From a virus (Duplodnaviria; Caudoviricetes), in the IMG/VR virus record IMGVR_UViG_3300037067_011504, positions 29,766 through 93,765 of that record: a stretch of 64,000 nucleotides of DNA. One strand, given 5' to 3'. A program made the position numbers and the translations under genes. Shown here in pieces: positions 1-58,699 of this stretch. The notes beneath the pieces are model-generated. The model made no database searches. It was not told where the DNA came from and saw only the letters and a program-made list of their open reading frames with translations. How positions within the stretch are numbered: the first letter of the stretch is position 1; every line of letters begins with the position of its first letter.

Positions 1-2
1 AT

Positions 3-1679: not shown

Positions 1680-1703
1680 TAGGCTTAATAAATAATAGTA
1701 GTT

Positions 1704-2210: not shown

Positions 2211-2222
2211 TATTAAAATGAT

Positions 2223-2582: not shown

Positions 2583-3506
2583 ATGATAGATAAACAAACT
2601 ATAACGATTGACTCACAAGAGAAGGTCGGTACATTACCTGATTTGACTTCTAACTGGTCAAGTAGAAGTCCATTACGTAATGGCACCGTTAGTATAGGTA
2701 AGTATACCGTACCTGATAATACAATGTCATGTATTAAATTCTTATGGCCTTTTGGACAATTTGCTAATATACCCAGAGTACCATCATTAACATCCATTCC
2801 TGTTGGTATTGTTAAGTTACAAGTCAATGGAGTAGATAAGATGGAGTTTCGTATAGGAGGAATTAAATCAACATTTGGCGGATCATTAGGTACAGCAGAC
2901 TTTGACATAAGTAGAAGACAACTTCTTTTATATGATGGTATACAATTTGTTGAAGGAGATGTAGTAAGACTTATTGTTACTCAGGATAAACTGACTACTA
3001 CAGGAACACCTCAAGTGTGCTATAATGTATCATTCATAGGTGTTAATACTTCTACTGGTGCAACGATAATAGAGAAACAGAGAACTATAATAACAGTAGA
3101 GACGGCTAATCAAATCATTGCTTCATATACTGTCTTATCTGGTGGATTAACTTTACAAGATTTGACAATACAAACCCAAGTAGGTGATTTCATGATGGGA
3201 CATATGCAGATACTTGTTAATGGCATGGTAGTAATGGAATTCCCTGTATCAGATTCGATGGGATGTACAAGACCTAGTGGTGGTATGTTTGGAATGATAC
3301 CATTCTATGATGGACTTAATTTTGGAGCAGGAAATACTATTGAAGCACGAATAGATCCATCGGTATCTGTTAATCAGAAATTTCATATGTTTACTGTAGG
3401 AGAGGAAACAGTCATTGGAGGAGCACCTATTGATAGTAAACTTAAGAGATGGACAGGAGAGGAATGGGTATCAGTCGGTACTCTGGTCAGTTTCCAGCCA
3501 CTATAA
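2583..3506 (+). CDS. hypothetical virion-like protein with two copies of the 2223-2582 domain
   Basis: LQVNGVDKMEFR and ILVNGMVVMEF; ends in LKRWTGEEWV. Confidence 0.55.
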   Translation: MIDKQTITIDSQEKVGTLPDLTSNWSSRSPLRNGTVSIGKYTVPDNTMSCIKFLWPFGQFANIPRVPSLTSIPVGIVKLQVNGVDKMEFRIGGIKSTFGGSLGTADFDISRRQLLLYDGIQFVEGDVVRLIVTQDKLTTTGTPQVCYNVSFIGVNTSTGATIIEKQRTIITVETANQIIASYTVLSGGLTLQDLTIQTQVGDFMMGHMQILVNGMVVMEFPVSDSMGCTRPSGGMFGMIPFYDGLNFGAGNTIEARIDPSVSVNQKFHMFTVGEETVIGGAPIDSKLKRWTGEEWVSVGTLVSFQPL

Positions 3507-3510
3507 AAAA

Positions 3511-3560
3511 AAGGTAAAAAAGATCCCGGGTTAGCAAAACCCGGGATTCTTAATTACCTT
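3511..3560. terminator. intrinsic terminator between the convergent gene blocks (U-tract on - strand)
   Basis: ATCCCGGGTT-AGCAA-AACCCGGGAT stem, extended by AAGGTAA/TTACCTT. Confidence 0.8.
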
Positions 3561-3578
3561 CAGTCATGAACAAAAAAT
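3515..3578 (-). ncRNA. candidate 3'UTR sRNA antisense to a translation start
   Basis: UUGUUCAUGACUGAA immediately 5' of the terminator is complementary to the start region of gene 31874-32260. Confidence 0.35.
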
Positions 3579-3579
3579 A

Positions 3580-3813
3580 TTATTTATATTCTTTTTTATA
3601 AATTATAATAAATAGCCATTTTATATTATGTCCTATTAATTGTATTGGATAAGTATATTTATCACCTTCTTGTTTTGGATTTTCTAATACTTTACAATGA
3701 TATATTATTTTAAAACCCAACCATCTTAAATACCATGGTAAAACTTTAAAATGTACTAATGTATCATTCTTTTTAAAAAATGAATCATTAAAAGTTAATT
3801 GAAATTTTTCCAT
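3580..3813 (-). CDS. small protein resembling an MCP insertion-domain segment
   Basis: KFQLTFNDSFF..TLV...YHCKVLENPKQEG..YTYPIQL versus MCP aa 105-151. Confidence 0.55.
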   Translation of the reverse strand: MEKFQLTFNDSFFKKNDTLVHFKVLPWYLRWLGFKIIYHCKVLENPKQEGDKYTYPIQLIGHNIKWLFIIIYKKEYK

Positions 3814-4205
3814 TATTGATATGATCTTACTTGTTCTATTAATTCTTTAGCAAGTAGAGGATTCTCTCCTTCTACTGATTGAGCATAAGCAATAGCAGCT
3901 TTCTGTGCATGAGGATCATCATCCACTCTTAATACGAAGTACCATGCATCAGGATCAATTTCTGAACCATCTGCTTTGCTGATGATATATTTACTTGCTT
4001 GTAATCCGCCTTTCTTATATCCTTTCTTAATAGGTAGTTCAGTTTTATTATATATCTCACATAATATCCTTCCTGTATCGATATCTTTTTTTATTATTTT
4101 GATCCAATAAGGATAATTCATGTAACATTCATCATCATTTACATAGATTTTGTTTCCTTGTTCAAATAGAGCAAGATGTTTTTCTTCAAGTAATATTTTT
4201 TCCAT
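3813..4205 (-). CDS. hypothetical phage protein (YFVLRxDxDPHA..A..AYA domain)
   Basis: Motif recurrent in small phage proteins. Confidence 0.6.
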   Translation of the reverse strand: MEKILLEEKHLALFEQGNKIYVNDDECYMNYPYWIKIIKKDIDTGRILCEIYNKTELPIKKGYKKGGLQASKYIISKADGSEIDPDAWYFVLRVDDDPHAQKAAIAYAQSVEGENPLLAKELIEQVRSYQ

Positions 4206-4516
4206 TAGAATAATATTTTTTGTATCGGTTCTCTCAGTAATATATCAATTGATTTAATAAATAGATTACCATCATTCATATATCTCAATAGGTTTTTTCT
4301 ATTGGATGAATAGGTAAGATATCTTGAATAGTACTGATTGGTTTGTGGATTGTATACTATCAATTCTATTCCTTCTCTTATCTCAGCATTTTCAGCAGTT
4401 AGTATCTCTCCTTCAGGAGGTAGTTTAAATATTTCTTTTATATTAGTCATTTTCTCATATCCTTCAGGAAGTGATTGGTAATACTCTAATTCGGTTTCTG
4501 TAACTATCTTATCCAT
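4205..4516 (-). CDS. hypothetical protein
   Basis: Translationally coupled ORF in the operon. Confidence 0.6.
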   Translation of the reverse strand: MDKIVTETELEYYQSLPEGYEKMTNIKEIFKLPPEGEILTAENAEIREGIELIVYNPQTNQYYSRYLTYSSNRKNLLRYMNDGNLFIKSIDILLREPIQKILF

Positions 4517-4814
4517 TTAATTCTCTATTAAAAGCATCTTCTTCTTCATCAGGATCACCATATATAAGTTTATCTATTTCATCATCATAATCTTTATCAT
4601 CTTTCTCTTTATATATCTGAAACATCTCTTCCATTGTATGTTCAGTTACTGGCATATAATGATCACAAATATACTTCATGAAATCTCTTATTTCTTTTGC
4701 TTCTTCACAATATAGATCTTCTACAATATATAAATAAGCGTTTCCAAAATTATATCCCTGACTCTTTAAAGCATGAGATATAATATAACAATTTCTTTCT
4801 CCTAATTTTTCCAT
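4509..4814 (-). CDS. hypothetical acidic protein
   Basis: Coupled ORF with acidic C-terminus. Confidence 0.6.
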   Translation of the reverse strand: MEKLGERNCYIISHALKSQGYNFGNAYLYIVEDLYCEEAKEIRDFMKYICDHYMPVTEHTMEEMFQIYKEKDDKDYDDEIDKLIYGDPDEEEDAFNRELNG

Positions 4815-4815
4815 A

Positions 4816-5190
4816 TTATTTATGTAAATATTTAAATGAAGATAAATTAATAAAACTCTTTTTTATATCATCAATTCTTTTTCCCATTGCATTTCTAATA
4901 TTTTTACTACATGTTTCTTGTGCTTCTCTATTTTCTTTAACACTATCTCTTATTTGCCATAGATGATGACAATAAGGATGATAATTAACAAATTGAGTTT
5001 TAGAAGGAAATAGTTGAGCCATGAGAATATTATCAGGAATATATTTATATCTTGCTTCTTTAATTTCTTTATAAGAAGGAGAATTATATTTTGTACTTAT
5101 AGATAGATGCCATAATCCTTCATCAATAGATATTATTATATCACATCTTCCCATCTTAAATGTTCCAGTTTTATATTCTTTTTCTTCCAT
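4816..5190 (-). CDS. conserved phage protein (WHLSIS...VNxHPYCxHLW family)
   Basis: His-rich conserved motifs. Confidence 0.65.
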   Translation of the reverse strand: MEEKEYKTGTFKMGRCDIIISIDEGLWHLSISTKYNSPSYKEIKEARYKYIPDNILMAQLFPSKTQFVNYHPYCHHLWQIRDSVKENREAQETCSKNIRNAMGKRIDDIKKSFINLSSFKYLHK

Positions 5191-5192
5191 TA

Positions 5193-5849
5193 TTATTTAT
5201 TTATTAAATCTGGAAAATGTTTAAGGATATTGTGTTTATAGTATATATTAGGATGGTTAATTGTTTTTAACCAATCTCTGTCTGGTATTCTTGCACCAGG
5301 ACCAGTCTCTGCACCTATAATTAAAAGATCCAATGAGTATGATGAATAGTAGTTATTAAAATCAAATCTATCTACAGGTCCTAATATAGGCTCAAGAGAC
5401 ACAAATAAGGGGCATAATGTATGAGAGGTAGATCTTATTAACCATTGTACTCTATCGAAGTCCTTATTGCTTGTTATAGTAGTCCCTAACATACAATTAC
5501 CAGGCCATTGATAATTCTTATACTTCATTGGTCTTTTAGAAAGAAACATGAACAGATGTTGAGGATTTTCGTTTACTACTTTAAGTATCTCATATATCCA
5601 GTTCTGATGTACACCTTCACTAAATATGTCGGACATTGAACCAACGAATATCTTAGCTCCTTTTTTCTTTTTATATGGTTCTTGTAATCTTTTTTCAAAG
5701 AATTCCGGTCTATTCCATTGATCGATCCATTTAAATCGTCTATTCATTGCTTCTGCATAACATTGGAATTCCTGACAGTTATTAGCACATCCAACGATGG
5801 GATTAAATGACCATTTTGCCCATCCGATAGTTTTACTTATATCATTCAT
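5193..5849 (-). CDS. DUF5131 (Gp37/Gp68-like) radical-SAM-like protein
   Basis: WSFNPIVGC..C....CYA, IFVGSMSDIF, FVSLEPILG, IIGAETG. Confidence 0.85.
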   Translation of the reverse strand: MNDISKTIGWAKWSFNPIVGCANNCQEFQCYAEAMNRRFKWIDQWNRPEFFEKRLQEPYKKKKGAKIFVGSMSDIFSEGVHQNWIYEILKVVNENPQHLFMFLSKRPMKYKNYQWPGNCMLGTTITSNKDFDRVQWLIRSTSHTLCPLFVSLEPILGPVDRFDFNNYYSSYSLDLLIIGAETGPGARIPDRDWLKTINHPNIYYKHNILKHFPDLINK

Positions 5850-5852
5850 AAT

Positions 5853-6728
5853 CTAGTCTTTAAGATTATTAACAAATTTCTTTAATTCACTTCTATAAGT
5901 AATTCGTTCATCTCTTTCCTGTGCAAGAAGATCTTCGTATTTACTTTGATCAAATATCTCGAGTATTGCGTCTTCACATAGTTTCATTAATTCTTCAGGT
6001 CTAACAGCATCTAATTCTACTTGTCCTAATCCTTCCCATTTAGCAGTACGTGAATCAGTAAGTTTTGTAGGCGCTGGTGGTAAATTCCATTCTTCTACTT
6101 GTTCTTGCATTAATGCAATTCTTCTTACTTCAACATCGATTCCAAATCTATTGAGATTATCATATATACTTCTTGGTATATCTTCTCCTGATGGATCATA
6201 ATCTCCAAAATAAAGTATTATTGGGATCTTATCATTTAAATAAGCATGTTCAAATCTTCCATAAGCATCATTTAAGAATGTTAACGAAGGATATCCTTTA
6301 CATGCACCTAATGCTATTGACCAATCGTTACATATATTTTTAAATACTCCTTGTAATGCTTTCTTTTCAATAAATATTTCTGGATAATATGGTTGATTTT
6401 CCCATTTATTTTTATGATAATTCTGCATCCATAGTTTTATTTGATGTTGAGCATTATCAATTTCATCATCTAATATTGTTTCTTTCCAGTTTGTTTCTCC
6501 TACCATAGTACGATCAAGATCTGAGAATTGATCGAAATCTATTTTATCATCCCATCTGGCATCAATCATTGCTACAACAACACGTTTATAATGTTGTATA
6601 TCATTAGTCATTCCAAGTCCTACTAGTTGATAATGTAAAGCACGAAGAGTTAATATCCCTTTTTCATATCTATTACATATATCAATAGAATTATCTATTA
6701 TCCATTCTTTTGTAAATATGTCTTTCAT
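5853..6728 (-). CDS. Topo VI-A/JetD-like TOPRIM domain protein
   Basis: TLRxLHYQL, FIEKKAL, KGYPS, YFGDYDPSG, ELDA. Confidence 0.75.
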   Translation of the reverse strand: MKDIFTKEWIIDNSIDICNRYEKGILTLRALHYQLVGLGMTNDIQHYKRVVVAMIDARWDDKIDFDQFSDLDRTMVGETNWKETILDDEIDNAQHQIKLWMQNYHKNKWENQPYYPEIFIEKKALQGVFKNICNDWSIALGACKGYPSLTFLNDAYGRFEHAYLNDKIPIILYFGDYDPSGEDIPRSIYDNLNRFGIDVEVRRIALMQEQVEEWNLPPAPTKLTDSRTAKWEGLGQVELDAVRPEELMKLCEDAILEIFDQSKYEDLLAQERDERITYRSELKKFVNNLKD

Positions 6729-37379: not shown

Positions 37380-37469
37380 ATTAATGAATCCATTAATAAA
37401 ACATTAATGAAAACGTTAATAAAATATTAATGTTTTAGTTGCATATTATTAATGAAAACATTAATTTTG
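37380..37469 (+). repeat. palindromic operator/iteron array 1, overlapping a promoter
   Basis: ATTAATGAAAACATTAAT-like units at 37380, 37403 and 37448; TTG-N20-TAATTTTG promoter at 37439-37469. Confidence 0.75.
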
Positions 37470-38268: not shown

Positions 38269-38589
38269 ATGGACAGAAAAAGATTTTTAAAGTTATTTGG
38301 TCTTGGAGTTGCAGGTATAGCAACTGCTAAGATTGTTATAAATGAAACCAAAAGAGTTGGTGAATTATCAGGAGTAATTGGAGAAAATGATATACAATTT
38401 TATGCAGGTAATGAACCATTTGCGAATGGACCATTTAAGGTGACAAAAGAGAATATTATAGTCGATAATTCGCGACATTTTATAATAAGAGTTGATGAAA
38501 AAGGAATGAGAAATTTCCATAATGCCTTAAACGAATATGTTAAGTATAGTGATTATAAGAATATATATATTGAAGATATAAATGGATAA
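38269..38589 (+). CDS. Tat-like leader fused to tail-fibre-like and MCP-like segments
   Basis: MDRKRFLK leader; GPFKVTK; RHFIIRxxxxGxxxFxxALxEY. Confidence 0.5.
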   Translation: MDRKRFLKLFGLGVAGIATAKIVINETKRVGELSGVIGENDIQFYAGNEPFANGPFKVTKENIIVDNSRHFIIRVDEKGMRNFHNALNEYVKYSDYKNIYIEDING

Positions 38590-39049
38590 CAGAGAAAAGA
38601 TAACAGGAACAGTAGTTGAGATATATGAACTAAAACAATTATCAGCATATTTCCGCAAGAGAGAGTTTGTTATCCGTTTTAGTGATACTGACTTTCAGAA
38701 TAAGATTGTTGAGAGATTCATTAAGTTTGGATTGATAAACCAAGATGTTCCGTTATTGGATAATGTAAGGATTGATGACACTGTAGCAGTATCTTATTAT
38801 ATCGATGGACGAAACATAGTAAAAGATGGTAAGACAAGTAACTTTACAAATCTTGTGTGTTATGAGTTAGATGTATTATCATCGGTATCAAGAGACACTG
38901 CGAAAGAGAAGAATGAGGTCATCATACCAGGAGGGACAGCACCACTTAAACAGTCAACACTCGATGAACTGATGATAACACCTGGAGAAGAAGATGATCC
39001 TTTTCCTGTTAATAATAAAGTAAATGATTTCTCAGGTTTGCCATTTTAA
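38582..39049 (+). CDS. DUF3127 family SSB-like protein
   Basis: ITGTV, FRKREFVI, IDGR, FTNL, C-terminal LPF. Confidence 0.8.
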   Translation: MDNREKITGTVVEIYELKQLSAYFRKREFVIRFSDTDFQNKIVERFIKFGLINQDVPLLDNVRIDDTVAVSYYIDGRNIVKDGKTSNFTNLVCYELDVLSSVSRDTAKEKNEVIIPGGTAPLKQSTLDELMITPGEEDDPFPVNNKVNDFSGLPF

Positions 39050-39056
39050 GTTTAAG

Positions 39057-39341
39057 ATGATGGATGAATTGATTAACATAGCTAACTACTGTAACTCTGT
39101 ACTTATTAAGTATGGACAGGTTATACGCATGTGTAATGCTATCTATATTAAAGATGATGATGTTATACAGATCAATATCAGGTACCGTAACCGTGGCGAT
39201 GATATGTTCCAGACATACCAGTACCAGATAGAGAACTTTGACTTTCTTATCACTGATACCGAGGTCATGGTTAATAGGTCTGCAATAAACAATATCAATA
39301 CAGAGATAGAGAAGATAGTATATGTTACTGCGTTAAATTAA
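39057..39341 (+). CDS. hypothetical protein
   Basis: Start placed at MMDEL. Confidence 0.55.
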   Translation: MMDELINIANYCNSVLIKYGQVIRMCNAIYIKDDDVIQINIRYRNRGDDMFQTYQYQIENFDFLITDTEVMVNRSAINNINTEIEKIVYVTALN

Positions 39342-39377
39342 CGAATCCATTAACATTTAATTAATGAAAACATTAAT
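39337..39377. repeat. palindromic array 2
   Basis: Units at 39337 and 39360 (23-bp period). Confidence 0.7.
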
Positions 39378-39379
39378 AT

Positions 39380-39691
39380 ATGATCATATATGATATTGCA
39401 TTAATGCCAGTCGGTCTAAGACCTGATATATGGCATCAGTTATCACATGAAGGTATACTTCTTTATGATTCAACACTAACAGGTAATATACCATTTAAGA
39501 CAGAACCTGATAATGTATCTCTGATAGATATAAGCAGTATGACGCCTGATAGTATAAAGATACTTACAGACTATATAAATAAAGAGAATGAGGAACTTGA
39601 TGTTAGGCAGTCAGAAGGGTATAAGATAGCAAGGGAGAATAACGATAAACTTATAAGTTATCTTAAGAAGATAAATGATAGTAATCAGTAA
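39380..39691 (+). CDS. portal-fragment paralog (clip region)
   Basis: 14 of the first 37 aligned residues identical to portal aa 455-491. Confidence 0.65.
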   Translation: MIIYDIALMPVGLRPDIWHQLSHEGILLYDSTLTGNIPFKTEPDNVSLIDISSMTPDSIKILTDYINKENEELDVRQSEGYKIARENNDKLISYLKKINDSNQ

Positions 39692-39736: not shown

Positions 39737-39769
39737 AATAGCCTCTCTATTAAGAGGGGCTATTCCTTT
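39737..39769 (+). terminator. stem-loop/terminator
   Basis: AATAGCCTCTCT-ATTA-AGAGGGGCTATT. Confidence 0.6.
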
Positions 39770-39772
39770 GGT

Positions 39773-39836
39773 ATTAATGAAAACATTAATAAAATATTAA
39801 TGGAAACATTAATAAAAGGTTAATGAAAACATTAAC
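39773..39836. repeat. palindromic array 3
   Basis: Units at 39773, 39796 and 39819 (23-bp period). Confidence 0.8.
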
Positions 39837-39846
39837 ATATTAAGAC

Positions 39847-40251
39847 ATGGAGATAGATAATGAAGTTTTTAACATCGACACTACATCAGAGAAATTCTTT
39901 GATGAATATTTAATGATCAAGAAACCATTGCTTGAATATATCTTAAGTAAGTTGAATAATAAACCTATCACGTTAAATCCTAAGTTATTACATGTATTCT
40001 CATTATTATTACATTATAATAATCAATATCGTAATATGGAGAATGGTGATAAGTGGAAGATAATATTCGATAATGGAACACGAAAGACAATAGCTGATAA
40101 GCTCAATATCAACCTTAAACATCTTAATACATATATATCTATCTTACGTAATATAAAAATATTGAATGGTAAGACAATAAACAAACCATTTATAGTATAT
40201 CCGGATAATGAATTTTCACTTATCTATAAATTCAATATAAAAGATGAATAG
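39847..40251 (+). CDS. winged-HTH DNA-binding protein
   Basis: TRKTIADKLNI..KHLNTYISILR..KIL HTH pattern. Confidence 0.65.
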   Translation: MEIDNEVFNIDTTSEKFFDEYLMIKKPLLEYILSKLNNKPITLNPKLLHVFSLLLHYNNQYRNMENGDKWKIIFDNGTRKTIADKLNINLKHLNTYISILRNIKILNGKTINKPFIVYPDNEFSLIYKFNIKDE

Positions 40252-40513
40252 TGGAGACACAAGAAAGATAATAAAAAAGATAGCTGAAGAAGAAGGTATA
40301 AGCGAATGGGCAGTGAGAATGATAGTGATGAGTGAGTTTGAAGGTGTTAGCAGAGTTATTCAATCAGGTATACGTGACAAACCTGAGACATTTAAAAATA
40401 TTGTCCTTAATGCTTTCGGTGCATTTAATGTGATGCCATCAGCATTTAATAAGTTTAAGAAATCAAAGAGAATAATAAGAAAAAGAAGAATAAGACATGA
40501 TAGCAGGAAGTGA
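40244..40513 (+). CDS. HU/IHF-like DNA-binding protein
   Basis: IIKKIAEEEGIS...NIVLNAFGAF. Confidence 0.7.
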   Translation: MNSGDTRKIIKKIAEEEGISEWAVRMIVMSEFEGVSRVIQSGIRDKPETFKNIVLNAFGAFNVMPSAFNKFKKSKRIIRKRRIRHDSRK

Positions 40514-41099
40514 TAACAGACTATTTATTATCGAGAATGATAAGGTAGTTATAAACCCAAAAGCACTTATAATACCAGAGTTTGCAACTATACATGAGAG
40601 AGACCGGTCAACAGGGAAGAAGAGATCAGTAAGAGAGTTTGCGTATATATACTATATTGCAGATTATAAATCAGAATATGATGTATATGGTCTATCAAAA
40701 GAAAGTCAGCTGGGACTGGATCTGTTTAATAATAAGAATTACAAACCTGATCCTGAGATACAGAAAGCAATAGAGAAGTATAAGTTATTACAGGAGACAC
40801 CGTCCATGCGTTATCTTATATCTATGCGCAAGAGAATAAACAGGACAATAACATATCTTGATAATGTAGAGATAAGAGATAAGATAAAAGGAGAAGAAGG
40901 GGAAGTAAAATATCTTAATCCTCATGTGACAATAGATAAGATAGTGACCACTATGAAACAGATTGAGGATGTCATAGAGAAACTTGAGAAATGGGAAAAG
41001 AAGGTCTTTGATGAGGAAGAGGATATGAAGATACGTGGTGGTGGTATGCTTAATGTCTTTGAAGATCCGGAATCAGCTAAATGGATTAATAATAAATAA
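40497..41099 (+). CDS. conserved crAss-like protein, probable terminase small subunit
   Basis: ERDRS..K....EFAYIY, IRGGG; located upstream of TerL. Confidence 0.55.
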   Translation: MIAGSDNRLFIIENDKVVINPKALIIPEFATIHERDRSTGKKRSVREFAYIYYIADYKSEYDVYGLSKESQLGLDLFNNKNYKPDPEIQKAIEKYKLLQETPSMRYLISMRKRINRTITYLDNVEIRDKIKGEEGEVKYLNPHVTIDKIVTTMKQIEDVIEKLEKWEKKVFDEEEDMKIRGGGMLNVFEDPESAKWINNK

Positions 41100-41101
41100 T
41101 T

Positions 41102-41308
41102 ATGATAAGAGTAGAGAGAGATAATTCATATAAAACATTTTACTGGCCATCTAAAGGTGAGGTATATGATACAGAAAGACATGAGAAGCTTATAATTAAG
41201 ATATTTGGTTTAACTATATATAAAAGAAATAGAGAATTCAATGCAGAATATTTCGAAAAGAATACTAATATCGGATATAAGAGTATAAATGAAAATAATA
41301 GAACTTAA
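41102..41308 (+). CDS. hypothetical protein
   Basis: Coupled ORF. Confidence 0.45.
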   Translation: MIRVERDNSYKTFYWPSKGEVYDTERHEKLIIKIFGLTIYKRNREFNAEYFEKNTNIGYKSINENNRT

Positions 41309-43481
41309 AGAGAAGGAGATAGGATTATACAAAAAGACTCCTCATTATAATACGTCTGAATTTACCGTAGCAGCACAACATTTCAAGGAGTTCAACTGTT
41401 ATACCCGTCACCCAGTAAACACGTCTCCACATAGTCTATGGTATAAGTTTTGGGTACAGGAGGCATCAAGGTGCCTATATGGTTATAATATAGGTCGTGA
41501 CTGGATACCTGGGTACTTCTATTATTATCTTAATTATTCTCCGATAGAAAAGGCTGTAAAGATTAATGATGAACCATTAATAGTGTTACCTGAGACGTCA
41601 TTACAATACAGTATAGATGAACAGGGACGAAAAGATAATAACTCATTTTCACTAAACATACCAGATGAAGATGAGTTTTTAAGTATACAGGCAGAGAGAT
41701 TAACTGATTTTCCTGATTTTTGGGATAGTGATTATGACTTCTTTCATTATCTTGAAGAAGCAGAACAATCCGGAGAACATGCTGCAGTGCTTAAGACCAG
41801 GGGAAGAGGTTATAGTTTTAAAGGAAGTTCAATGCTTAACAGGAATTTCTATCTCATACCACGTTCTAAATCATATGCATTTGCATCAGAAAAGGAATAT
41901 CTTATTAATGATGGATTGCTTACCAAGGCATGGGATATGATGGGTCATATAGAGACCAATACACCATGGGGTAAGAGAAAGAGCAAAGTAGATACCATGA
42001 TGCATAAGAGAGCTTCTTATATGAAGATGCATAATGGTATAATGTCAGAACTTGGATTTGGTAGTGAGATAATAGGTTTATCATTTAAGAATAATCCACA
42101 AAAAGGAAGAGGGAAACGAGGGAAACTTATATTGTGGGAAGAAGGTGGAGTATTTCCATATGTACTACAGTCATGGAATATATCACTTAAGTCTATGGCA
42201 CAGGGAAGACTTGTTTTTGGACTCATGGTGATCTTTGGTACCGGGGGAACAGAGATAAATGATATAATAGGACTGGATCAGTTATATTCAAGAGGAGCAG
42301 GATATAAGGTACATATGATACCAAATACCTTCGAACCGGAATTAGGATATTCCAAGACTGGAATATTTATTGGAGAACAAAGAAACCATGAAATAGCCAT
42401 GGACAAAGATGGTAATTCAAATGTAGAGAAGGCAATGGAATTCATTATGAAGGACCGTATAGATTATCTTGAGAAGACAAAGAATAAAGAGATGCTCTTG
42501 AGATATATTGCAGAAGCTCCTATTAAACCATCAGAGGCTTTAATGCAGATAGGAAGTAATATCTTTCCGGTGGACCTGTTAAAACAACAGAAAGCATATC
42601 TGTTATCACATAGAGATACCATGATTGATAGTGCATGGGTAGGATTACTTGTACCTGATCCAGAGACGGGTGTTATAGAATGGAAGATAGATAATACTCT
42701 CATACCGATTGATCACTATCCTCATAATGATATAAGTAATCTTAATGGTTGTGTAGTTATATATGAACCGCCAGTTAAAGATAAGAGTGGTAATATACCT
42801 TATGGATTATATATATCAGGCAATGATAACTATGATCATGATCAGAGCACTACAGAATCATTAGGATCAACATTTGTCATGAGCAGGATGACAGAAAGGA
42901 TAGTAGCAGAATATACCGGGAGACCATTCACAGCATCTATGTTCTATAATACTAATAGATATCTTCTAATTTATTATAATGCCATACAGAACTTCGAGAA
43001 CAACCTTAAAGGACTACATGCAGATTTCATTAAGAACAGATGTGAACATCTTCTTGCTGACACACCTGATAATGTAAAAGACAAGATAGAAGATAAGAGA
43101 GTTCTCAATAGAAAAAAGGGCACACCAGGTACTACACCTATAAAAAAGATGGGAAGAGAATATATCCTTGAATGGTTGATGAGAGAGGCAGAACCAGGAA
43201 CAGGAATACTTAACCTGCATAAGATACGCAGTATAGCATTACTTGATGAACTGATATATTGTAATTCAACAGGTAACTTTGACAGGATAGATGCTCTTAT
43301 ATATCTCCTTATCTATCATGAAGACTTATGGCAACGTATACCAAGTTATGATACAAGACCAAAGAAAGAGTTACATCCATTCTTTGCCAATGATCCATTA
43401 ATAAAGCTTAATACTCAAAAAGATAAAAAGTTTATAATAGACAAGAATGTAATGATTTATCCTGTTACTAAAATGTTTTAA
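41289..43481 (+). CDS. terL: terminase large subunit
   Basis: LKTRGRGYS Walker A, ILWEEGG Walker B, FGTGG, nuclease motifs ISGND and GNFDRIDA. Confidence 0.93.
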   Translation: MKIIELKEKEIGLYKKTPHYNTSEFTVAAQHFKEFNCYTRHPVNTSPHSLWYKFWVQEASRCLYGYNIGRDWIPGYFYYYLNYSPIEKAVKINDEPLIVLPETSLQYSIDEQGRKDNNSFSLNIPDEDEFLSIQAERLTDFPDFWDSDYDFFHYLEEAEQSGEHAAVLKTRGRGYSFKGSSMLNRNFYLIPRSKSYAFASEKEYLINDGLLTKAWDMMGHIETNTPWGKRKSKVDTMMHKRASYMKMHNGIMSELGFGSEIIGLSFKNNPQKGRGKRGKLILWEEGGVFPYVLQSWNISLKSMAQGRLVFGLMVIFGTGGTEINDIIGLDQLYSRGAGYKVHMIPNTFEPELGYSKTGIFIGEQRNHEIAMDKDGNSNVEKAMEFIMKDRIDYLEKTKNKEMLLRYIAEAPIKPSEALMQIGSNIFPVDLLKQQKAYLLSHRDTMIDSAWVGLLVPDPETGVIEWKIDNTLIPIDHYPHNDISNLNGCVVIYEPPVKDKSGNIPYGLYISGNDNYDHDQSTTESLGSTFVMSRMTERIVAEYTGRPFTASMFYNTNRYLLIYYNAIQNFENNLKGLHADFIKNRCEHLLADTPDNVKDKIEDKRVLNRKKGTPGTTPIKKMGREYILEWLMREAEPGTGILNLHKIRSIALLDELIYCNSTGNFDRIDALIYLLIYHEDLWQRIPSYDTRPKKELHPFFANDPLIKLNTQKDKKFIIDKNVMIYPVTKMF

Positions 43482-43524
43482 TAAATATTATAATTGTAGT
43501 AATTTGCACATAAATAAAAAAAGT

Positions 43525-45909
43525 ATGGCTAATAAAATATTTTCTTTTCCAAAACAGAAGTTATCTTATAAAGAGAAAACTGAAGAGTGGCATATCGAAA
43601 ATGTTAAAGCCGGAGTACTATTAAGTGATTATAATCCGAGTAAGTCAAGGAAGACAAAACAGGAGATGACACTTAACTATGATCTTGTTTCCGGGAAGTT
43701 TGATGAGAAAGATATTGACCGTTCATTGAATCCGAAATCTTTCAAAGGGATTAACTTTCCTGCGAAGATACAGAACTATCCTATAGAACTTACAAAACTT
43801 GATGTATTAAAGGGAGAGGAGATATCAAGACCATTCAACTGGTACCTGAGAGCTGTCAATGATCATGTAATAATAGAGAAGGAAGAGAAAGAGCAAAAAG
43901 AGTTGCAGGAATATATTGTAAGGGAACTGAAAAATCCAGACTATTCCGAGTTACAGGCAAAGAATAACCTACAAAAGCTAAAGAAATATTATGTCTATGA
44001 CTATCAGGATAAGAGGGAAGAGATGGGTACCAGGTTACTTCAATATCTATGGAGGACACAAAAGATACCAACACTTACCACTGATGCATTCTATGATATT
44101 GTAACTGTCGCTGAGGAACAATATGCATGTGACATCTTTCATGGAGAACCAAAGAACAGGAAAGTAAGACCACGATCATTATCAGCATTCGGATTAGGTG
44201 AGAGTAATTATATTGAGGATGCAATGATAATTGTTGAAGATAGTTATATGTCTGTTGGTAGTGTCATTGATATGTTCTTCGATTATCTCACTGATGACCA
44301 GGTAAAGATTCTTGATGAAGGAAAACTTAATAAGACAATAGGACAGAATATAATGTTTTCCGGACCTATTAGTCTTAATGATGAATATGTATTACAATAC
44401 GGCACACAGTTATTACCAGTATCAAGTTCAGATGTATTATCATATGGGGGAGGGTTTGATGATGAAGGGAATGTAAGAGTTACAAGGGTATGCTGGAAGT
44501 CAAAAGTTAAAGTAGGAGAACTGACATATTATGAAGATGGAGAGGAGTTGAAGGATTATGTGTCGGAAGATTATGTTATCGATAAGTTAAAGGGAGAGAA
44601 AGTTAAATGGTTATGGCTTAATGAATGGAGACAAGGATATAATATTGGTGGAGTAGGAGACGGATTCTTTGTTAAGCTAGAGATGCTTCCACGACTTGGT
44701 ATGACATATAATAATCCATCTAGGGTAATGCCGCCATACATAGGAACAATATATAAGATAGGTGAGAAAGCTTATTCTCTTGTTGATCGTATACGTCCAT
44801 ATAAATATCTCTATAATATTACTATGACTCGTGCTGAGATGGCAAGTGCTCGTAATAAAGGTAATCTCACAGAACTTGATCTGGCACGTATACCTGATGG
44901 CTGGGATCCTGATATATGGATGATGTATGCAGAGGCTAATGGATGGTTCCTAACTGATTCCTTCAAAGAAGGTAATGAAGGTGCTGCCTTGGGAAAACTG
45001 CTTAATAACATAAATAACCGATCACCGGTAACACTTAATCTTGATGCCTCGCAACAGATAATGACACAACTGGAGTTTGCCAGGTATATAAAGAATGAGA
45101 TAAATGAGATAACAGGTATAACACCACAAAGAGAAGGTATGATAAGCAACCGTGAGACACTTGGTGGTGTTAACAGATCATTACAACAATCGTCCTTTAT
45201 AACAGAACCATACTTCCATATACATGATAATACCAAGTTAAGATTACTGGAGCTTAATCTTGAGACAGCGAAGTATTGTTTTCGTGATCAGTCATTCTCA
45301 CTTAATATCCTTGATGATGGATTGATAAAAAATACACTTAAGATAGATGGTAAACTTCTCAGTGAGACAGTATATGGTATGTATATGAGTGATGGTAAAG
45401 ATGACGCAGAGTTATTTAATTATATCAAACAATATGCTCATGCAGCATTACAGAATGATACCGGTAAGTTTAAAGATATATTCGAGATAATGAAGTCAAA
45501 GAGTATCGCTGCAGTAGGTAAACGTATGGAAGAGGCTGAACAGGAACGTATCATGGAGAAAGATCTTGATATGGAGAAACAACAACAGGCACAGATGAGC
45601 ATCAATGAAGCAAATATTAAATGGGAGCAGATGAAGTTTAATCAACAGATGCAGATAGACATGAGGAAACTGCAGAATGAGATAGAACTTAAGATCCTTG
45701 ATATAGAGGCAATAAAATATAATACTGATGCCAAGTCAGAGATAGAGATTGAGAGATTGAGAGTTGAGATACAGATATCAAAGGATAAGTTACGTGCAAC
45801 ATTGGAAAAGATGAGACAGGATAATGAGGAGTTTAATCGTAAACTATCACAAGAAAGAGAATTGTTTAATAAAGATCTTGCTATGAGGAGACAAAAGGTG
45901 CCTGCATAA
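43525..45909 (+). CDS. portal protein
   Basis: FPKQKL..K...W, IQNYPI, GEE, ITGITPQREG; follows TerL; start placed at MANKIF. Confidence 0.9.
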   Translation: MANKIFSFPKQKLSYKEKTEEWHIENVKAGVLLSDYNPSKSRKTKQEMTLNYDLVSGKFDEKDIDRSLNPKSFKGINFPAKIQNYPIELTKLDVLKGEEISRPFNWYLRAVNDHVIIEKEEKEQKELQEYIVRELKNPDYSELQAKNNLQKLKKYYVYDYQDKREEMGTRLLQYLWRTQKIPTLTTDAFYDIVTVAEEQYACDIFHGEPKNRKVRPRSLSAFGLGESNYIEDAMIIVEDSYMSVGSVIDMFFDYLTDDQVKILDEGKLNKTIGQNIMFSGPISLNDEYVLQYGTQLLPVSSSDVLSYGGGFDDEGNVRVTRVCWKSKVKVGELTYYEDGEELKDYVSEDYVIDKLKGEKVKWLWLNEWRQGYNIGGVGDGFFVKLEMLPRLGMTYNNPSRVMPPYIGTIYKIGEKAYSLVDRIRPYKYLYNITMTRAEMASARNKGNLTELDLARIPDGWDPDIWMMYAEANGWFLTDSFKEGNEGAALGKLLNNINNRSPVTLNLDASQQIMTQLEFARYIKNEINEITGITPQREGMISNRETLGGVNRSLQQSSFITEPYFHIHDNTKLRLLELNLETAKYCFRDQSFSLNILDDGLIKNTLKIDGKLLSETVYGMYMSDGKDDAELFNYIKQYAHAALQNDTGKFKDIFEIMKSKSIAAVGKRMEEAEQERIMEKDLDMEKQQQAQMSINEANIKWEQMKFNQQMQIDMRKLQNEIELKILDIEAIKYNTDAKSEIEIERLRVEIQISKDKLRATLEKMRQDNEEFNRKLSQERELFNKDLAMRRQKVPA

Positions 45910-47286: not shown

Positions 47287-48771
47287 ATGAAACTTATTTC
47301 ACCATTACAGGAGTATGAACCCAAAGATTTCAGTGGTCTTGTGACTACTAATCACTTGGGTATGTTATATCAGGAGAATCCCACGGAGACATCCAACCTG
47401 ATAACATTACTTTATCGTGCCAATAAAGGGGTTAACTTTGGCATGATATTAAAACAATTCACACCGTTTTATTGTAAGACTGATGCTGACTTCCGTTGGC
47501 ATTTACAGGGAGACTCAAGGAAGAACATACCACTTATTGAATGTAAAGTTCAGGGATCAGCCATTGCAGCAACATCCAGGGCTGGTCTTGCAGGTGCACG
47601 TTTTACCCTGATATTCCCTGAGAGATATTTTTCTGACACTAACCTTATCGTTGGTGAGAAGAATTCTGTTTATCCTATCCGTATTGTAGGTATTCCTGAA
47701 CCTTATGGAGCAGGTATGTGGGCATATACTTGTGAACTATTCACTGGTGATCCTACGTTATTCATCCCATATGAGGAGTTAGTTGCTGGTAAGAAGTTCA
47801 GCAAGGAATGGTCAATTGTATCCAAGACATTAAGTGTAAAAGGTGGAACACCGAGTTACACCAGTCCCTTTGCAATGAGAAACGTATTCTCAATGATAAG
47901 GATGGAAGATACACGTCCTGGTAATATGATTGCCAGACCTGTTGCTTTCTCATGGCCGGCAGTTGATGAAAATGGAAAACAAAAACTCATGACTACATGG
48001 GAACAGTATGCAGATTGGGAACTTGAGATGCAATTCCAGGATGCAAAGGATAAACTATTAAATTTTGCAACTCTTAACAGAACCAGTACAGGGGAATTCT
48101 TGCAAACAGATATTTCCGGGTTCCAGATTGAACAGGGAGCAGGTATGCAACAGCAGATCGAGTCTTCTAATATCTCATTCTATAATGGCTTTGAGATTGA
48201 TATCAAATGGCTCACGGAACATATCATGGATCTATCAGATAATAACAAGGGATATGGCCAGCAGAGAAGGATCGTCATGCGTACAGGTAAATGGGGTGCC
48301 TATGGCTTCAGTCTTGCATTGAAAGACTATGCATCACTCTTCACGCCTCTCGCTACCGACTCACCGATATACAGTACTGCAGGAGGATTTGGTTTCAAAG
48401 ATAACTTTGTTGAATACCAGTCACCTGATGGTGCAATACTGACTGTTCTTGTTGATCCGGCCTATGATGATCTTGAACGTAATAAGATCATGCATCCAAG
48501 TGGAAAGGGAGTAGCCAAATCATATGAATACCAGATTCTCAATGTCGGAAAGGTAGGAGGAGAGGATAATATCCGTCCTGTTTATCTTGAAGGTAATGAG
48601 GATATCATGGGCTGTGAACCGGGTTTACGTGATCCATTCCAGCCTAATATGCCTGGCAGATTCATGTCAACAGGAAAAGATGGTTATACCATTCACAGGG
48701 CATTCGTTGGTGGTGTGATGGTAAAAGATCCTACACGTTGTGCAACAATTCGTCCCTCTATTCTGGCTTAA
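47287..48771 (+). CDS. major capsid protein
   Basis: GLVTTNHLG, WxLQG, RNxFSxIR, IxQGAG, GLRDPF crAss-type MCP motifs. Confidence 0.92.
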   Translation: MKLISPLQEYEPKDFSGLVTTNHLGMLYQENPTETSNLITLLYRANKGVNFGMILKQFTPFYCKTDADFRWHLQGDSRKNIPLIECKVQGSAIAATSRAGLAGARFTLIFPERYFSDTNLIVGEKNSVYPIRIVGIPEPYGAGMWAYTCELFTGDPTLFIPYEELVAGKKFSKEWSIVSKTLSVKGGTPSYTSPFAMRNVFSMIRMEDTRPGNMIARPVAFSWPAVDENGKQKLMTTWEQYADWELEMQFQDAKDKLLNFATLNRTSTGEFLQTDISGFQIEQGAGMQQQIESSNISFYNGFEIDIKWLTEHIMDLSDNNKGYGQQRRIVMRTGKWGAYGFSLALKDYASLFTPLATDSPIYSTAGGFGFKDNFVEYQSPDGAILTVLVDPAYDDLERNKIMHPSGKGVAKSYEYQILNVGKVGGEDNIRPVYLEGNEDIMGCEPGLRDPFQPNMPGRFMSTGKDGYTIHRAFVGGVMVKDPTRCATIRPSILA

Positions 48772-53692: not shown

Positions 53693-56600
53693 ATGGGTAA
53701 AGGATCTGTCATATTAAAAGGTAAGCCGCAGACGATAGGAAGTGTAACGGAACAGTTAATACAACATTATGAAGATAAGAATCTTATCATACAGGGTTAT
53801 ACTAATGATGATCTATTAGAGAGATTACTTACTATTGATGGTCATGGTTCAGGTCTTGATGCAGATCTTTTAGATGGACAACATGGTTCATATTATACAC
53901 CTATTGAAAATCCTGTATTTCTAGGAGTGATAACTATACCTGTACTAAAGGTTACTGATGGTGCAGCAGCAGGTAATATACTTATATCATCTGCTGATGG
54001 TACATTAAGTTATCTTGCAGCAGGAGCAACAACACAAATACTAGTTGGTGGTGGTGCTGCTGATCCTGTATGGACAACAGCAACAGGCACCGGTTCACCT
54101 GTAAGAGCAACAAGTCCTATCTTTGTCACAAATATTACATTACCGATATATACTATTGTTCCAAATGGAGGATATATAGGTCAGACAACAGGACCATTAA
54201 TAACATTTGATGATACAAGTAATCATCTTGAGATATCTGGATGTAATGTAGGAATAGGGAATACTGATCCTGCATATAAACTTGATATGACAGGAGATAT
54301 AAGGATAAGAACAAGTAATAAAGTATATTTTGATAGTACATCGGTAGGGGTTAATCCTATATATTTTCAGATATGGGCAAATGAAACAGGAGGCGAACTT
54401 ACTATTGAACCCACAGCAAACGGATCAGCTTCAAATATACGATTCAGAGTAGGTGATAGTACAACTGGTTTTAGATCAGATGTAATGTTCTTATCACAAA
54501 AACAGTATGTAGGTATTGGTACTATTACACCAACTCAAAAATTAGATGTAGAAACATCAGTACCAAATATCAATGCTGGTTATTTTGTTAATAGTGCTGC
54601 AGCAGGTACAAGTTTTGGATTAAGTGTTGTTGCCGGAGGAAATAGTAGTGATTATTCTATGCGGGTCTATGAAAGAACAGGAGCAACAGTATATTTTGCA
54701 ATCAGAGGTGATGGTAATATAGGTATTAAAACAATAACTCCAGGATATACATTAGATATTGCAGGTACTTTAGGTATTAATGAAACTTTTACAGTTGGAG
54801 ATGCTGTAAGTGCAGGTTCTGGAAAGATAACACTTAATGCTTTGGGTACTGCTGGAAATATGCCAAATATTATATTAAAATCAGGTGGTACTCAATATGG
54901 TGTGATTGGTTTATCTGGTGCAGTATTAGGTACTACTGCTACTAATATAGTAATATTTGCTGAGACTGGTAAGACTATTAATTTCTGGCCTAATGGTGGA
55001 TCAACTGGTGTAACTATTGGCACTAATGGTTATATGGGTATTGGTTTTACTTCTCCACTTTCAGCATTATGTATTGACGGAGGTCTTAATGTTGGTGGTA
55101 CTACTGCAGTTGGTAATAATAATCTTGTCGTTGTAGGTACATGTGATATCGGAGGTATATCAACATTTATAGGATTGGTAAAGACAGCAGGAGGAGTACA
55201 TGTAGGTGGTGCAAGTGATCCAGGTCCTGATAATCTTCTTGTCGATGGTACATTAGAAATAATAGGAGAATCTACATTTACAAGTGAGATAACAGTTCCT
55301 ACACTTAAGATAACTGATACTCCAACAGTAGGATATATATGGAAATGTACAAACTTAGATGGATCTGGTGAATGGGGTAATATAACATCTTCACAGACAT
55401 ATAAAGGTACCGTAGATGGAGATGATGGACTACCTACAGGAGGAGGACCGGCACTGATAGATGGTACAGGTACTGCAGGATGGTATTATGTCTGTTGTGA
55501 TGCAGGGACATATGATTATGGTAATCCAAATGGTAACAGTATAACAACAGCAGTTGGTGATCAGTTATATTATAATGGTGCATCATGGGAATTAGTTCCT
55601 GTATCTATTGCCGTCAACCTGACAGGACCTATAACATCTGTAGGAAATGCAACATCAATAGCATTACAGACAGGAACAGGAACAACATTTGCCATGTCGG
55701 TAAGTCCTGTATTTACCACTGATATTACCACGCCTATCATATATGGATCTGCAGCAGCTAATGGTGATATAACGATAGAAGGTACGTCACATGCAACAAA
55801 AACTACAAGTTATATATTATTACAACCCAATGGTGGTCTAGTAGGTATTGGTACATCAACACCATATGAAAGACTTGAGGTAAATGGAGCTATTGCTACA
55901 ACAGGTGCAGCAACAGCAAGTAATAGTCTTGGTCCTACAGTTATAATGTTTTATAATGCTGCCGGATATATACAGAGTGTAGATTATGGTGTGTCATTTA
56001 AAGATTTAAATATTGCTGCAGATAATATTTATTTTGATACAGGATTCGCTGCTACTTCAACAGCAATGACAATTCTTACAACTGGTTATGTTGGTATTGG
56101 TATTACATCTCCATTATCAACACTTCATCTATATAGAGCAGATAATCTATGGTTAAACTTGGATAGCAGTGCATTTACATCAGGAATAGCATATATGAAA
56201 GCCGGAACTAATAAATGGCTTAATATGATTGAAAGAACTATACCTTTTTATGGTGGAGCTGTAAATGATCTTTATTGGTATAATAGTGTAACTGCTTCTG
56301 TAGATATGATGATTCAATCTGCAAATGGTTATGTAGGTATTGGAACTGTTGTACCATTGGTCCCGCTTAACATACAAGGACAAGCAAGGTTTCAAGATGC
56401 TACTTATGTTCATGGAGCAGCAGGTGGAGCATTAGATATTATACCAGGTGCTACCTATACTGAAATTAATGTTGGTAAGACAGGATGGACAGCATATGGA
56501 GATCTAATATTACAATCTACCAGTGGTAATGTAGGTATTGGATTTACAGCCCCATTATCGGAATTATGTATAGATGGTGGTCTTCATGTAGGTAGTGAAA

Positions 56601-58699
56601 CTGATGCAGGAGATAATAACTTATTGGTTGATGGTACCATATCGGCAGGTATAACACCAGCATCAGCTAAAGCACATTTTTTATCTACAACTGAACAGTT
56701 ACGTCTTGGTTATGATGCCAGTAAATATGCATCATTTACTATTAATGCAGCAGGTGATCTTACTATATCTACTATAGATGATCTTGTATTAAGTCCTGTA
56801 AGTAATATTATAAAACTTACTTCTTCAGTAGGAATAGGTACAGATCATTTTGCAAGTAAAACGACAGGTTGGTATATAACTTATGGCGGTTCATCAGATT
56901 TTAGAAGAGTATGGGCAGACGAAATACATACTGCTGCATTTATTGCGGATCTTGAACAAGCTCTTGCAGGAGGACAGATAATAAGCAAATCTGTTGCTTC
57001 ATTGGCAGCAATATTTACTATTCCTGTAGCAGGAGGAGTAACAACATTAGTTGTTGATTCGTTTAAAGGTTTCGATACATTTAGAGTATTTGTTAATGGT
57101 GATCTAATAAGATTAAGACAATTTGAAAGAGTAGGACTCAGATTAGATGTTGCAGATTGCTGGGGTACTGTTGTATGGGTATCAACAGACACAACAAATA
57201 AAACACAAACATATACATTTACACGATCAGCAAATCCTAATGAAGGAGCAGCAACGGCTACTGAAACAATAGGGATAGGTTCGCTTGTATTAGATTATGG
57301 TATTACTGGTAATGGATACTTAGAAAGTAATTCTATTGATGGTGATATGGCAGAAAATTCTCCTTATCATCAGATTGTTAGATGGACAACTCATCCTGCT
57401 AGTATTCTACCTGGAGAAGGTTTAACTGTTCACACCAGACTTGGAAATTTAAATGGTCTTTTTCATGTATCTGATGAATTTGGATTATTTGCAGGAGATG
57501 GACATCTTGATACAGATCATTATCTTCGTATAAGTAATGAAGCAATAACGACATATAACCTTGATTATAATATCTACAGTGGTGCAGCACTTGTTTTTAA
57601 GATAGATCCTTCCATACCTTCATTATCAATGGGAGCAACACTTCCTGCAGGATATCTTACAAATGATAGTGGTATATGGATGGGATTAGATGCAGCAGTA
57701 TATAAGATGAGAGTAGGTATTGTTGCCGGAGGAATATTAACACAGGGATTCTCATGGGATAATACAACATTTACTATTAAGGGTACTATAACAGCAATAG
57801 CAGGATTAATTGGTGGTTTTATTATAGATTCTACAGAAGGATTATATTCAGGAACAGGACCTACAAGGGTTCAGATGAAACCAGGAGCAGGATTCTGGAC
57901 AGGTGCATCATCACGAGGAGCTGCACCATTTAATGTAACAGAAGCAGGTGTACTTACTGCTGTTTCAGGAACAATAGGTGGTTGGACATTATCAGCAACG
58001 ACATTAATTGGAGGAACTATAACATTATCTAATACTGGTTATATGTCGATAGGTACAGGAGATAATATAGCAATTTTATCAGCAGTGATAGGTGATGATC
58101 CATATAGGTTATGGATTGGAGATGCAACAGCTGCAGATGCTCCATTTAGTGTAACAAAGACAGGTGATCTTACTGCAACAGGTGTTGCAGAACTTGGAAC
58201 AAATGCTGATGTTAATGGATGGAATGTAGCAATACAAGGACCTAATATATGGGAGAATTCAAAGAATTTAGATGGATCTGGAATAAAGATTAACGAATAT
58301 GGTTATCATGGATTAGATACTTATTATAGAAACTTTATTGTATATGATGGCAAGGCAACTGCTGTATTGGAATGTACTGGTTATAGTGTAGGTTATTTAG
58401 ATTCATTAGTTACTATACATGGTGCATTAAGTGTAAGTGGAGTGGCTCAGTTTAGTGATATTACTACATTTAATACTGGTGTTATTTGTGATACACAGGT
58501 AAGTATTGGTAAGGGTACTGCTGCTGCTGCATCGGCAGCACTGGAAGTATCATCTACAACAAAAACAGTTTTATTACCAAGAATAAATGGTACTGCATCT
58601 GTTGTCACTCCTGTTGATGGGATGATATATTATGATACAGGTTATAAACGATTTGTTGGAAGAGCTGATGGGTCATGGTATCAATTTATTATGGGTTAA
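53693..58699 (+). CDS. tail fibre protein
   Basis: SGLDADLLDG motif, many GxVGIG...P..L shaft repeats, APFxVT and IGGW motifs. Confidence 0.8.
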   Translation: MGKGSVILKGKPQTIGSVTEQLIQHYEDKNLIIQGYTNDDLLERLLTIDGHGSGLDADLLDGQHGSYYTPIENPVFLGVITIPVLKVTDGAAAGNILISSADGTLSYLAAGATTQILVGGGAADPVWTTATGTGSPVRATSPIFVTNITLPIYTIVPNGGYIGQTTGPLITFDDTSNHLEISGCNVGIGNTDPAYKLDMTGDIRIRTSNKVYFDSTSVGVNPIYFQIWANETGGELTIEPTANGSASNIRFRVGDSTTGFRSDVMFLSQKQYVGIGTITPTQKLDVETSVPNINAGYFVNSAAAGTSFGLSVVAGGNSSDYSMRVYERTGATVYFAIRGDGNIGIKTITPGYTLDIAGTLGINETFTVGDAVSAGSGKITLNALGTAGNMPNIILKSGGTQYGVIGLSGAVLGTTATNIVIFAETGKTINFWPNGGSTGVTIGTNGYMGIGFTSPLSALCIDGGLNVGGTTAVGNNNLVVVGTCDIGGISTFIGLVKTAGGVHVGGASDPGPDNLLVDGTLEIIGESTFTSEITVPTLKITDTPTVGYIWKCTNLDGSGEWGNITSSQTYKGTVDGDDGLPTGGGPALIDGTGTAGWYYVCCDAGTYDYGNPNGNSITTAVGDQLYYNGASWELVPVSIAVNLTGPITSVGNATSIALQTGTGTTFAMSVSPVFTTDITTPIIYGSAAANGDITIEGTSHATKTTSYILLQPNGGLVGIGTSTPYERLEVNGAIATTGAATASNSLGPTVIMFYNAAGYIQSVDYGVSFKDLNIAADNIYFDTGFAATSTAMTILTTGYVGIGITSPLSTLHLYRADNLWLNLDSSAFTSGIAYMKAGTNKWLNMIERTIPFYGGAVNDLYWYNSVTASVDMMIQSANGYVGIGTVVPLVPLNIQGQARFQDATYVHGAAGGALDIIPGATYTEINVGKTGWTAYGDLILQSTSGNVGIGFTAPLSELCIDGGLHVGSETDAGDNNLLVDGTISAGITPASAKAHFLSTTEQLRLGYDASKYASFTINAAGDLTISTIDDLVLSPVSNIIKLTSSVGIGTDHFASKTTGWYITYGGSSDFRRVWADEIHTAAFIADLEQALAGGQIISKSVASLAAIFTIPVAGGVTTLVVDSFKGFDTFRVFVNGDLIRLRQFERVGLRLDVADCWGTVVWVSTDTTNKTQTYTFTRSANPNEGAATATETIGIGSLVLDYGITGNGYLESNSIDGDMAENSPYHQIVRWTTHPASILPGEGLTVHTRLGNLNGLFHVSDEFGLFAGDGHLDTDHYLRISNEAITTYNLDYNIYSGAALVFKIDPSIPSLSMGATLPAGYLTNDSGIWMGLDAAVYKMRVGIVAGGILTQGFSWDNTTFTIKGTITAIAGLIGGFIIDSTEGLYSGTGPTRVQMKPGAGFWTGASSRGAAPFNVTEAGVLTAVSGTIGGWTLSATTLIGGTITLSNTGYMSIGTGDNIAILSAVIGDDPYRLWIGDATAADAPFSVTKTGDLTATGVAELGTNADVNGWNVAIQGPNIWENSKNLDGSGIKINEYGYHGLDTYYRNFIVYDGKATAVLECTGYSVGYLDSLVTIHGALSVSGVAQFSDITTFNTGVICDTQVSIGKGTAAAASAALEVSSTTKTVLLPRINGTASVVTPVDGMIYYDTGYKRFVGRADGSWYQFIMG

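Follow-up and report, generated by a model that had tools for sequence, protein, structure and literature searches.

The stretch of DNA analyzed in this study (hereafter the window) covers 64,000 nucleotides (nt) of an uncultured crAss-like phage of ~94 kb and encodes 95 proteins. One of these is a small acidic protein of 103 amino acids (aa) whose gene, at 39380-39691, lies 3.8 kb upstream of the portal gene in the same late structural arm and beside the packaging genes (Table 1). We find that this is a genuine gene, that its product founds a family which had escaped annotation, and that the N-terminal part of the protein resembles the clip of the phage portal closely enough to suggest, tentatively, a free-standing clip-like module.

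Table 1. Coordinates of the small gene, the features within and around it, and the late genes with which it is compared (nt positions in the window).
Feature	Position	Strand	Details
105-aa gene	39024-39341	+	just upstream of the small gene; partner in most related loci
Single palindrome TTAATGAAAACATTAA	39361-39376	+	4 nt before the start codon of the small gene
Small-protein gene	39380-39691	+	ATG-to-stop open reading frame, 103 aa, isoelectric point (pI) 4.6, net charge -7
Predicted N-terminal alpha/beta domain, aa 1-54	39380-39541	+	AlphaFold2 (AF2) model md971d8acd79e, mean predicted local distance difference test (pLDDT) 88
Clip-like motif, aa 4-36	39389-39487	+	D5-x4-P10-x-G12-x5-W18-x6-G25-x4-D30-S31-x3-G35
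Predicted single long C-terminal helix, aa 56-101	39545-39682	+	AF2 model; conserved ENNxKLIxYLKxIN motif
Terminator-like hairpin	39737-39764	+	12-bp stem, -22.3 kcal/mol, z=-3.8, 0/200 shuffles
Three-palindrome array	39774-39835	+	23-nt spacing; separates the hairpin from the wHTH-like gene
Winged helix-turn-helix (wHTH)-like gene	39847-40251		134 aa; next gene after the small gene
Large terminase (TerL) gene	41289-43481		730 aa
Portal gene	43504-45909	+	801 aa; match to PhiCrAss001 gp20 (7QOG), E=1.6e-118; PHROG 6547
Portal segment aa 455-491 (clip region)	44866-44976	+	resembled by the small protein
Major capsid protein gene	47287-48771

The start codon of the small gene is the first codon past an in-frame stop. 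A word-indexed search found seven close relatives of the protein (71-78% identity), and HMMER, run in full against 1.84 billion representatives, added about 20 clusters of 99-124 aa at 29-45% identity. Extra copies came from metagenome scans. The protein has ~30 relatives of 99-124 aa, found in metagenomic crAss-like phages, and both length and start position are kept across them. Among three close copies, the ratio of nonsynonymous to synonymous substitution rates (dN/dS) is 0.13-0.21, which points to steady purifying selection and not to arms-race turnover. Because of these relatives, the purifying selection and the conserved synteny described below, we regard 39380-39691 as a real gene. The probability that it is instead a chance open frame in AT-rich DNA is negligible: small size alone speaks for that explanation, whereas ~30 relatives with the same length and start already refute it through conservation, and the dN/dS values, the synteny and a confident AF2 model (pLDDT 88) stand against it as well.

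All members of the family have a pI within 4.3-5.2. None of 28 members has a match in Pfam or PHROG, no relative was found when three members were compared by tblastn with 50,697 GenBank phages, and scans of IMG/VR for the family returned one locus only. The small protein is thus the founding member of a previously unannotated, acidic and conserved family that is confined to one clade of environmental crAss-like phages. The same hidden Markov model (HMM) search of 1.84 billion proteins yielded no genuine fused form. Five long matches to the HMM (P0125, P0126, P0139, P0146 and P0147) proved to be repetitive or low-complexity artefacts of a shallow profile and did not match the deeper profile. 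Since these long matches are artefacts, the small protein stands alone.

The resemblance to the portal was evaluated at the level of the single pair of proteins and at the level of the two families. In a single-pair BLASTP comparison, residues 4-36 of the small protein share 14 of 33 positions with portal residues 458-491 (27.3 bits, E=1e-4). The preliminary description of this locus had aligned 37 columns to portal aa 455-491; its 14 identities are borne out, and its portal coordinates were right both for the motif (nt 44866-44976) and for the stretch RYIKNEINEI further downstream (nt 45082-45111). Of 3000 shuffles of the small protein, 16 reached the Smith-Waterman score of 54, as did 11 of 1000 shuffles of the portal (p=0.005-0.012). 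The background of such similarities was gauged by comparing all 95 window proteins with one another by BLASTP. The strongest non-self match in the window joins two adjacent genes, 2223-2582 and 2583-3506, over a 31-aa stretch with 55% identity (35.4 bits, E=5.6e-6), a probable case of local paralogy judging from this stretch. Chance similarity in this proteome is gauged by a 42-aa match of 29.3 bits between the products of 53693-58699 (1668 aa) and 38269-38589 (106 aa).

For the family-against-family comparison we used a portal alignment of 55 sequences (26-87% identity) and also ran it with ~110 portals. Whether 8, 28 or 31 members of the small-protein family were compared with the portals, hhalign returned one register (P=5-7e-4) in which small-protein residues 4/5-31/38 correspond to portal residues 458/459-486/493 in the numbering of the window. 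The observed score of 29.1 was reached by none of 522 column shuffles (mean 14.9, standard deviation 2.5, maximum 27.2). With the window's clade taken out of both alignments, the register was unchanged and the score was 34.5, which none of 347 shuffles reached; this test is not independent, since conserved columns are inherited within each family. When the clip segment alone was the target, P was ~1e-4 and the score was not reached in any of 445 shuffles. A clip-only HMM recovered 22 of the 28 family members at p<=0.01, with the match always starting at residue 3-5. Both families have the same majority residue in eight columns (D5/D459, P10/P464, G12/G466, W18/W472, G25/G480, D30/D485, S31/S486 and G35/G490); D5/D459 is invariant in both, and P10 is present at 89% in the small family. 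Corrected for a comparison of the portal with every other protein, the family P of 6e-4 becomes ~0.06, and for the narrower question of whether any protein resembles the clip, the clip-only P of ~1e-4 becomes ~0.01 (94 proteins). The N-terminal motif match is real and located in the clip.

In the canonical portal fold, the region between the outer and inner stem helices is the clip, and because portal residues 455-491 lie between these helices, we place them there. The portal clip has been described as three strands plus one helix between the two stem helices (PMC12847820), and the inner stem helix comes after it (PMC12847820, PMC10172136). In PhiCrAss001 gp20 this helix comprises residues 519-541, with the tunnel loops at 550-563 (PMC10172136). 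The window portal is offset by -4 in the alignment to gp20, which puts its inner stem helix at 515-537. The matched segment is thus just N-terminal of this helix, and the earlier placement of the segment in the clip holds.

The AF2 model of the small protein, built on a 28-sequence alignment, predicts a strand at residues 2-3, a helix at 15-23, a strand at 26-29, a bridge at 39-40, a strand at 47-50 and a long helix at 56-101. Counted from the conserved aspartate, the long helix begins after 51 residues in the small protein and after ~53-56 in the portal. Compared by secondary structure and not by superposition, the predicted order and spacing of the elements fit a clip plus inner stem helix. 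Fold searches did not return a portal: Foldseek with both AF2 models against the PDB and with the better model against BFVD gave no match at E<=0.001, and a wide VIA-align search gave nothing but generic long helices, matched to aa 54-103, and these filled its list so that aa 1-54 were hardly probed. The ESM Atlas gave no usable match to the small protein.

The preliminary description had proposed that the similarity continues as DYINKENEEL versus RYIKNEINEI. The former is aa 64-73 of the small protein, and the latter is portal 527-536, within the inner stem helix. This pair has 4 of 10 identities and a score of 18; when 10-mers from the C-terminal part of the small protein are paired with the portal, 46 other pairs equal or beat it, and the C-terminal profile comparison (11.6) falls within its shuffles (10.1 +/- 1.9); the proposed continuation is therefore attributable to chance. 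The most conserved block outside the clip-like motif, ENNxKLIxYLKxIN, is found in the C-terminal helix and does not have a portal counterpart.

Several results weigh against reading the N-terminal domain as a relative or mimic of the clip. The hhalign probability is only 27-30%, and deepening the alignments did not increase it. With the full portal HMM, 860 of 8400 shuffles scored at or above the window protein (p=0.10), and P0130 was the only relative to stand out (2/8400 shuffles). No portal was found at E<=1e-3 when the family HMM was searched against 1.84 billion proteins, nor was 7QOG listed at E<=10 when a profile of the family was run against the sequences of PDB entries. Across the 55 crAss-type portals, the clip invariants are D459, P464, W467, F487 and G493; W467, F487 and G493 are unmatched, being aligned to L13, a variable position and P38, respectively. 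The C-terminal half lacks portal similarity beyond chance. Within the window proteome the small protein and the portal are the third-best non-self match (E=0.003 per query), and unrelated-looking pairs score 29.3 and 26.2 bits, near their 27.3 bits; since such pairs score alike, the pairwise score alone is not above proteome-wide chance. Corrected for all protein pairs, P exceeds 1, and a match of this kind is expected by chance about once. A co-variation test in the only three phages with both genes did not find cognate-specific similarity between small protein and portal.

Taken together, the similarity is in the twilight zone, and a stretch this short cannot prove the gene to be a copy of the clip. 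Alignment against shuffled controls, which had been proposed as a check on the preliminary description, gave a divided answer, with profile-profile and Smith-Waterman scores beating their shuffles and the full portal HMM remaining within them. Likewise, of the earlier designation as a stand-alone paralog of the portal clip, the stand-alone part is correct, as no genuine fusion exists among the proteins searched, and paralogy is not demonstrated, given the hhalign probability, the full-HMM result and the fold searches without a portal. The match may reflect descent, mimicry or coincidence. In total, we consider it an even question whether the motif is a coincidence in an otherwise unrelated assembly or accessory protein, and the two forms that such a coincidence could take are best discussed together with the genomic neighbourhood.

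The small gene is part of a gene order that runs from a DUF3127 single-stranded DNA-binding protein (SSB)-like gene through the 105-aa gene, the small gene, sometimes extra genes, the wHTH-like 134-aa gene, an HU/IHF-like gene and a gene for a 200-aa protein to TerL and the portal, and this order, from DUF3127 to portal, is conserved across related loci. By BLASTP, a homologue of the 105-aa gene is directly upstream of the family member in the related loci L001, L004, L005 (weak), L006, L012, L013, L016 and L017; it is ~200 nt upstream in L019 and L020 and absent in L011. As judged by these comparisons, the 105-aa gene and the small gene are a conserved gene pair. The 200-aa protein encoded just upstream of TerL (40497-41099) matches PHROG 16390, a family without an assigned function (E=2.4e-10), and shows a weak match to a small-terminase PHROG as well (E=0.04), which makes it a candidate small terminase subunit. 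The related large terminase of L001 (11718-14930, 1070 aa) carries an intein (Hom_end_hint, Hom_end, LAGLIDADG_3), and the TerL of the window is without one.

The small-protein family is absent from L007-L010, phages whose portals are 41-55% identical to that of the window. In L007 and L008, whose portal is 55% identical, a Cpn10/GroES homologue (6079-6507) fills the slot between the DUF3127 SSB-like and wHTH-like genes. Upstream of the SSB-like gene, L007 carries two radical SAM genes, a methyltransferase gene and a UDP-glucose dehydrogenase gene split by a LAGLIDADG element (1-5587). A GroES homologue in the same slot hints at assembly helpers there. It is possible, though on the unlikely side, that two unrelated families match by coincidence and that the small protein helps in assembly or packaging, perhaps as a small chaperone-like protein or an adaptor, and works through its own fold and conserved C-terminal helix instead of a likeness to the clip. 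The expectation of about one match of such strength proteome-wide, the full portal HMM (p=0.10), the hhalign probability of ~30% and an ENNxKLIxYLKxIN block without a portal counterpart all favor this explanation. It has to account, however, for a match that lies at positions conserved in the two families and persists once the window's clade is excluded, for the clip-only P of ~1e-4 (~0.01 after correction for 94 proteins), and for a predicted element order that fits clip plus stem helix.

The same slot bears on a second form of coincidence, in which the small protein would be a small acidic accessory protein directed at the host, for take-over or anti-defence, and unrelated to packaging. We consider this doubtful. 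The small size and acidic pI of all members, the patchy distribution with absence from L007-L010 despite their related portals, the position in a variable slot and the lack of matches to known families are what such a protein could be expected to show, but the gene is situated in the late structural arm beside the packaging genes and not among the early genes, and its dN/dS reflects steady purifying selection.

The small gene is also bordered by unusual DNA elements. The palindrome TTAATGAAAACATTAA (TTAATG-N4-CATTAA, with <=2 mismatches) occurs in 8 copies in the window versus 0.46 expected. Seven copies form three arrays with 23-nt spacing (37381-37464, 39361-39376 and 39774-39835) and the eighth lies outside them at 19066. 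The hairpin downstream of the small gene is kept in L001 and L014, in the latter with a compensatory C-G to T-A change, and the downstream palindrome array has an equivalent in both and a degenerate form in L011; it is absent where other genes come after the small gene. The upstream palindrome is absent before the L001 orthologue, and distant relatives are without any arrays. As the hairpin and the downstream array are both found again in L001 and L014, and L001 is without the upstream copy, the small gene looks like the last gene of its transcription unit, and the downstream array looks like a part of the following wHTH/IHF/terminase operon. From its position and its conservation in L001 and L014, the last array is probably an operator or promoter element of this packaging operon. 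The preliminary description had read the flanking arrays and stem-loop as a sign of separate regulation; this reading is half right: the hairpin and the downstream array exist and are kept in close relatives, but the latter is part of the next operon, and L001 lacks the upstream copy.

These palindromes, strongly over-represented and located directly before and after the gene, could suggest that the small protein is a DNA-binding regulator of TTAATG-N4-CATTAA sites. Since the protein is acidic (net charge -7), DNA binding is unlikely. It also has no match to a DNA-binding family, no arrays accompany distant members, L001 lacks the upstream copy, and better candidates for such a role are encoded after the array by the wHTH-like and HU/IHF-like genes. 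We therefore hold this explanation to be very improbable.

The most likely single reading, which we hold only tentatively, is that the N-terminal domain is a true clip-like module, either a paralog or a mimic of the clip. What the analysis establishes is the gene, its family, the shared motif and the position of the portal segment in the clip; common descent or mimicry, and any binding partner, are inferred. Under the clip-like reading, the domain would be an ancient partial copy of the portal clip and the helix that follows it, or a mimic of them, and would keep the residues that are conserved in both families (D, P, G, W, G, DS and G). The soluble small protein would act by protein-protein contact through a clip-like strand-helix-strand surface, its partner might be a normal binder of the clip, such as an adjacent portal subunit, TerL or the first ring of the tail, and the outcome might be the timing or chaperoning of portal assembly or of terminase docking. 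Any such contact with TerL, with the adaptor or with Avs4 is speculative. A more specific version, in which a free-standing copy of the portal tip (clip plus following helix) serves as a soluble mimic that occupies the clip site of the terminase or tail ring and times packaging, or decoys immune sensors, appears improbable. Its decoy form, soaking up host sensors of monomeric portals (Avs4-type) or of portal clips (SpbK-type), is quite improbable; two recent surveys of anti-defence proteins do not mention a portal-mimicking decoy.

It is important to consider what such a protein would mean for the biology of these phages. Crassvirales are abundant in gut and environmental viromes, and most of their small genes are without an assigned function. 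Both the packaging motor and the tail dock on the portal clip, which also forms part of what bacterial sensors such as Avs4 and SpbK read. If the clip-like reading is true, a free-standing clip-like protein would represent a new kind of regulator or decoy at the portal hub. Even if the clip likeness is coincidental, there remains a new family beside the packaging genes that can be folded confidently, along with the conserved pairing of the small gene with the 105-aa gene and a slot of variable content, filled in other phages by a GroES homologue.

The closest known system is the clip of the crAss-type (P22-like) portal, represented by PhiCrAss001 gp20 (7QOG; PHROG 6547), some relatives of which match Pfam PF16510 P22_portal. 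The small protein and this clip share the pattern D-x4-P-x-G-x5-W-x6/7-G-x4-DS-x3-G, and the predicted strand-helix-strand-strand plus long helix of the former parallels the clip and inner stem helix of the latter. Both segments are acidic, and both genes are found in one phage. In contrast to gp20, the small protein is free-standing and only 103 aa long, and its Met1 is four residues before the conserved aspartate, leaving no outer stem helix, wing or crown. It also differs in lacking W467, F487 and G493 and in having a C-terminal helix motif of its own, and the similarity between the two is statistically marginal. A further comparison is offered by the proteins that dock on the clip, namely the large terminase, the head-to-tail adaptor or first tail ring, SpbK and Avs4, whose contact surface on the portal has been described (PMC12847820). 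The small protein showed no similarity to any of these. Their interactions with the portal (PMC12847820, PMC10172136) are those that a soluble clip-like protein could copy or compete for.
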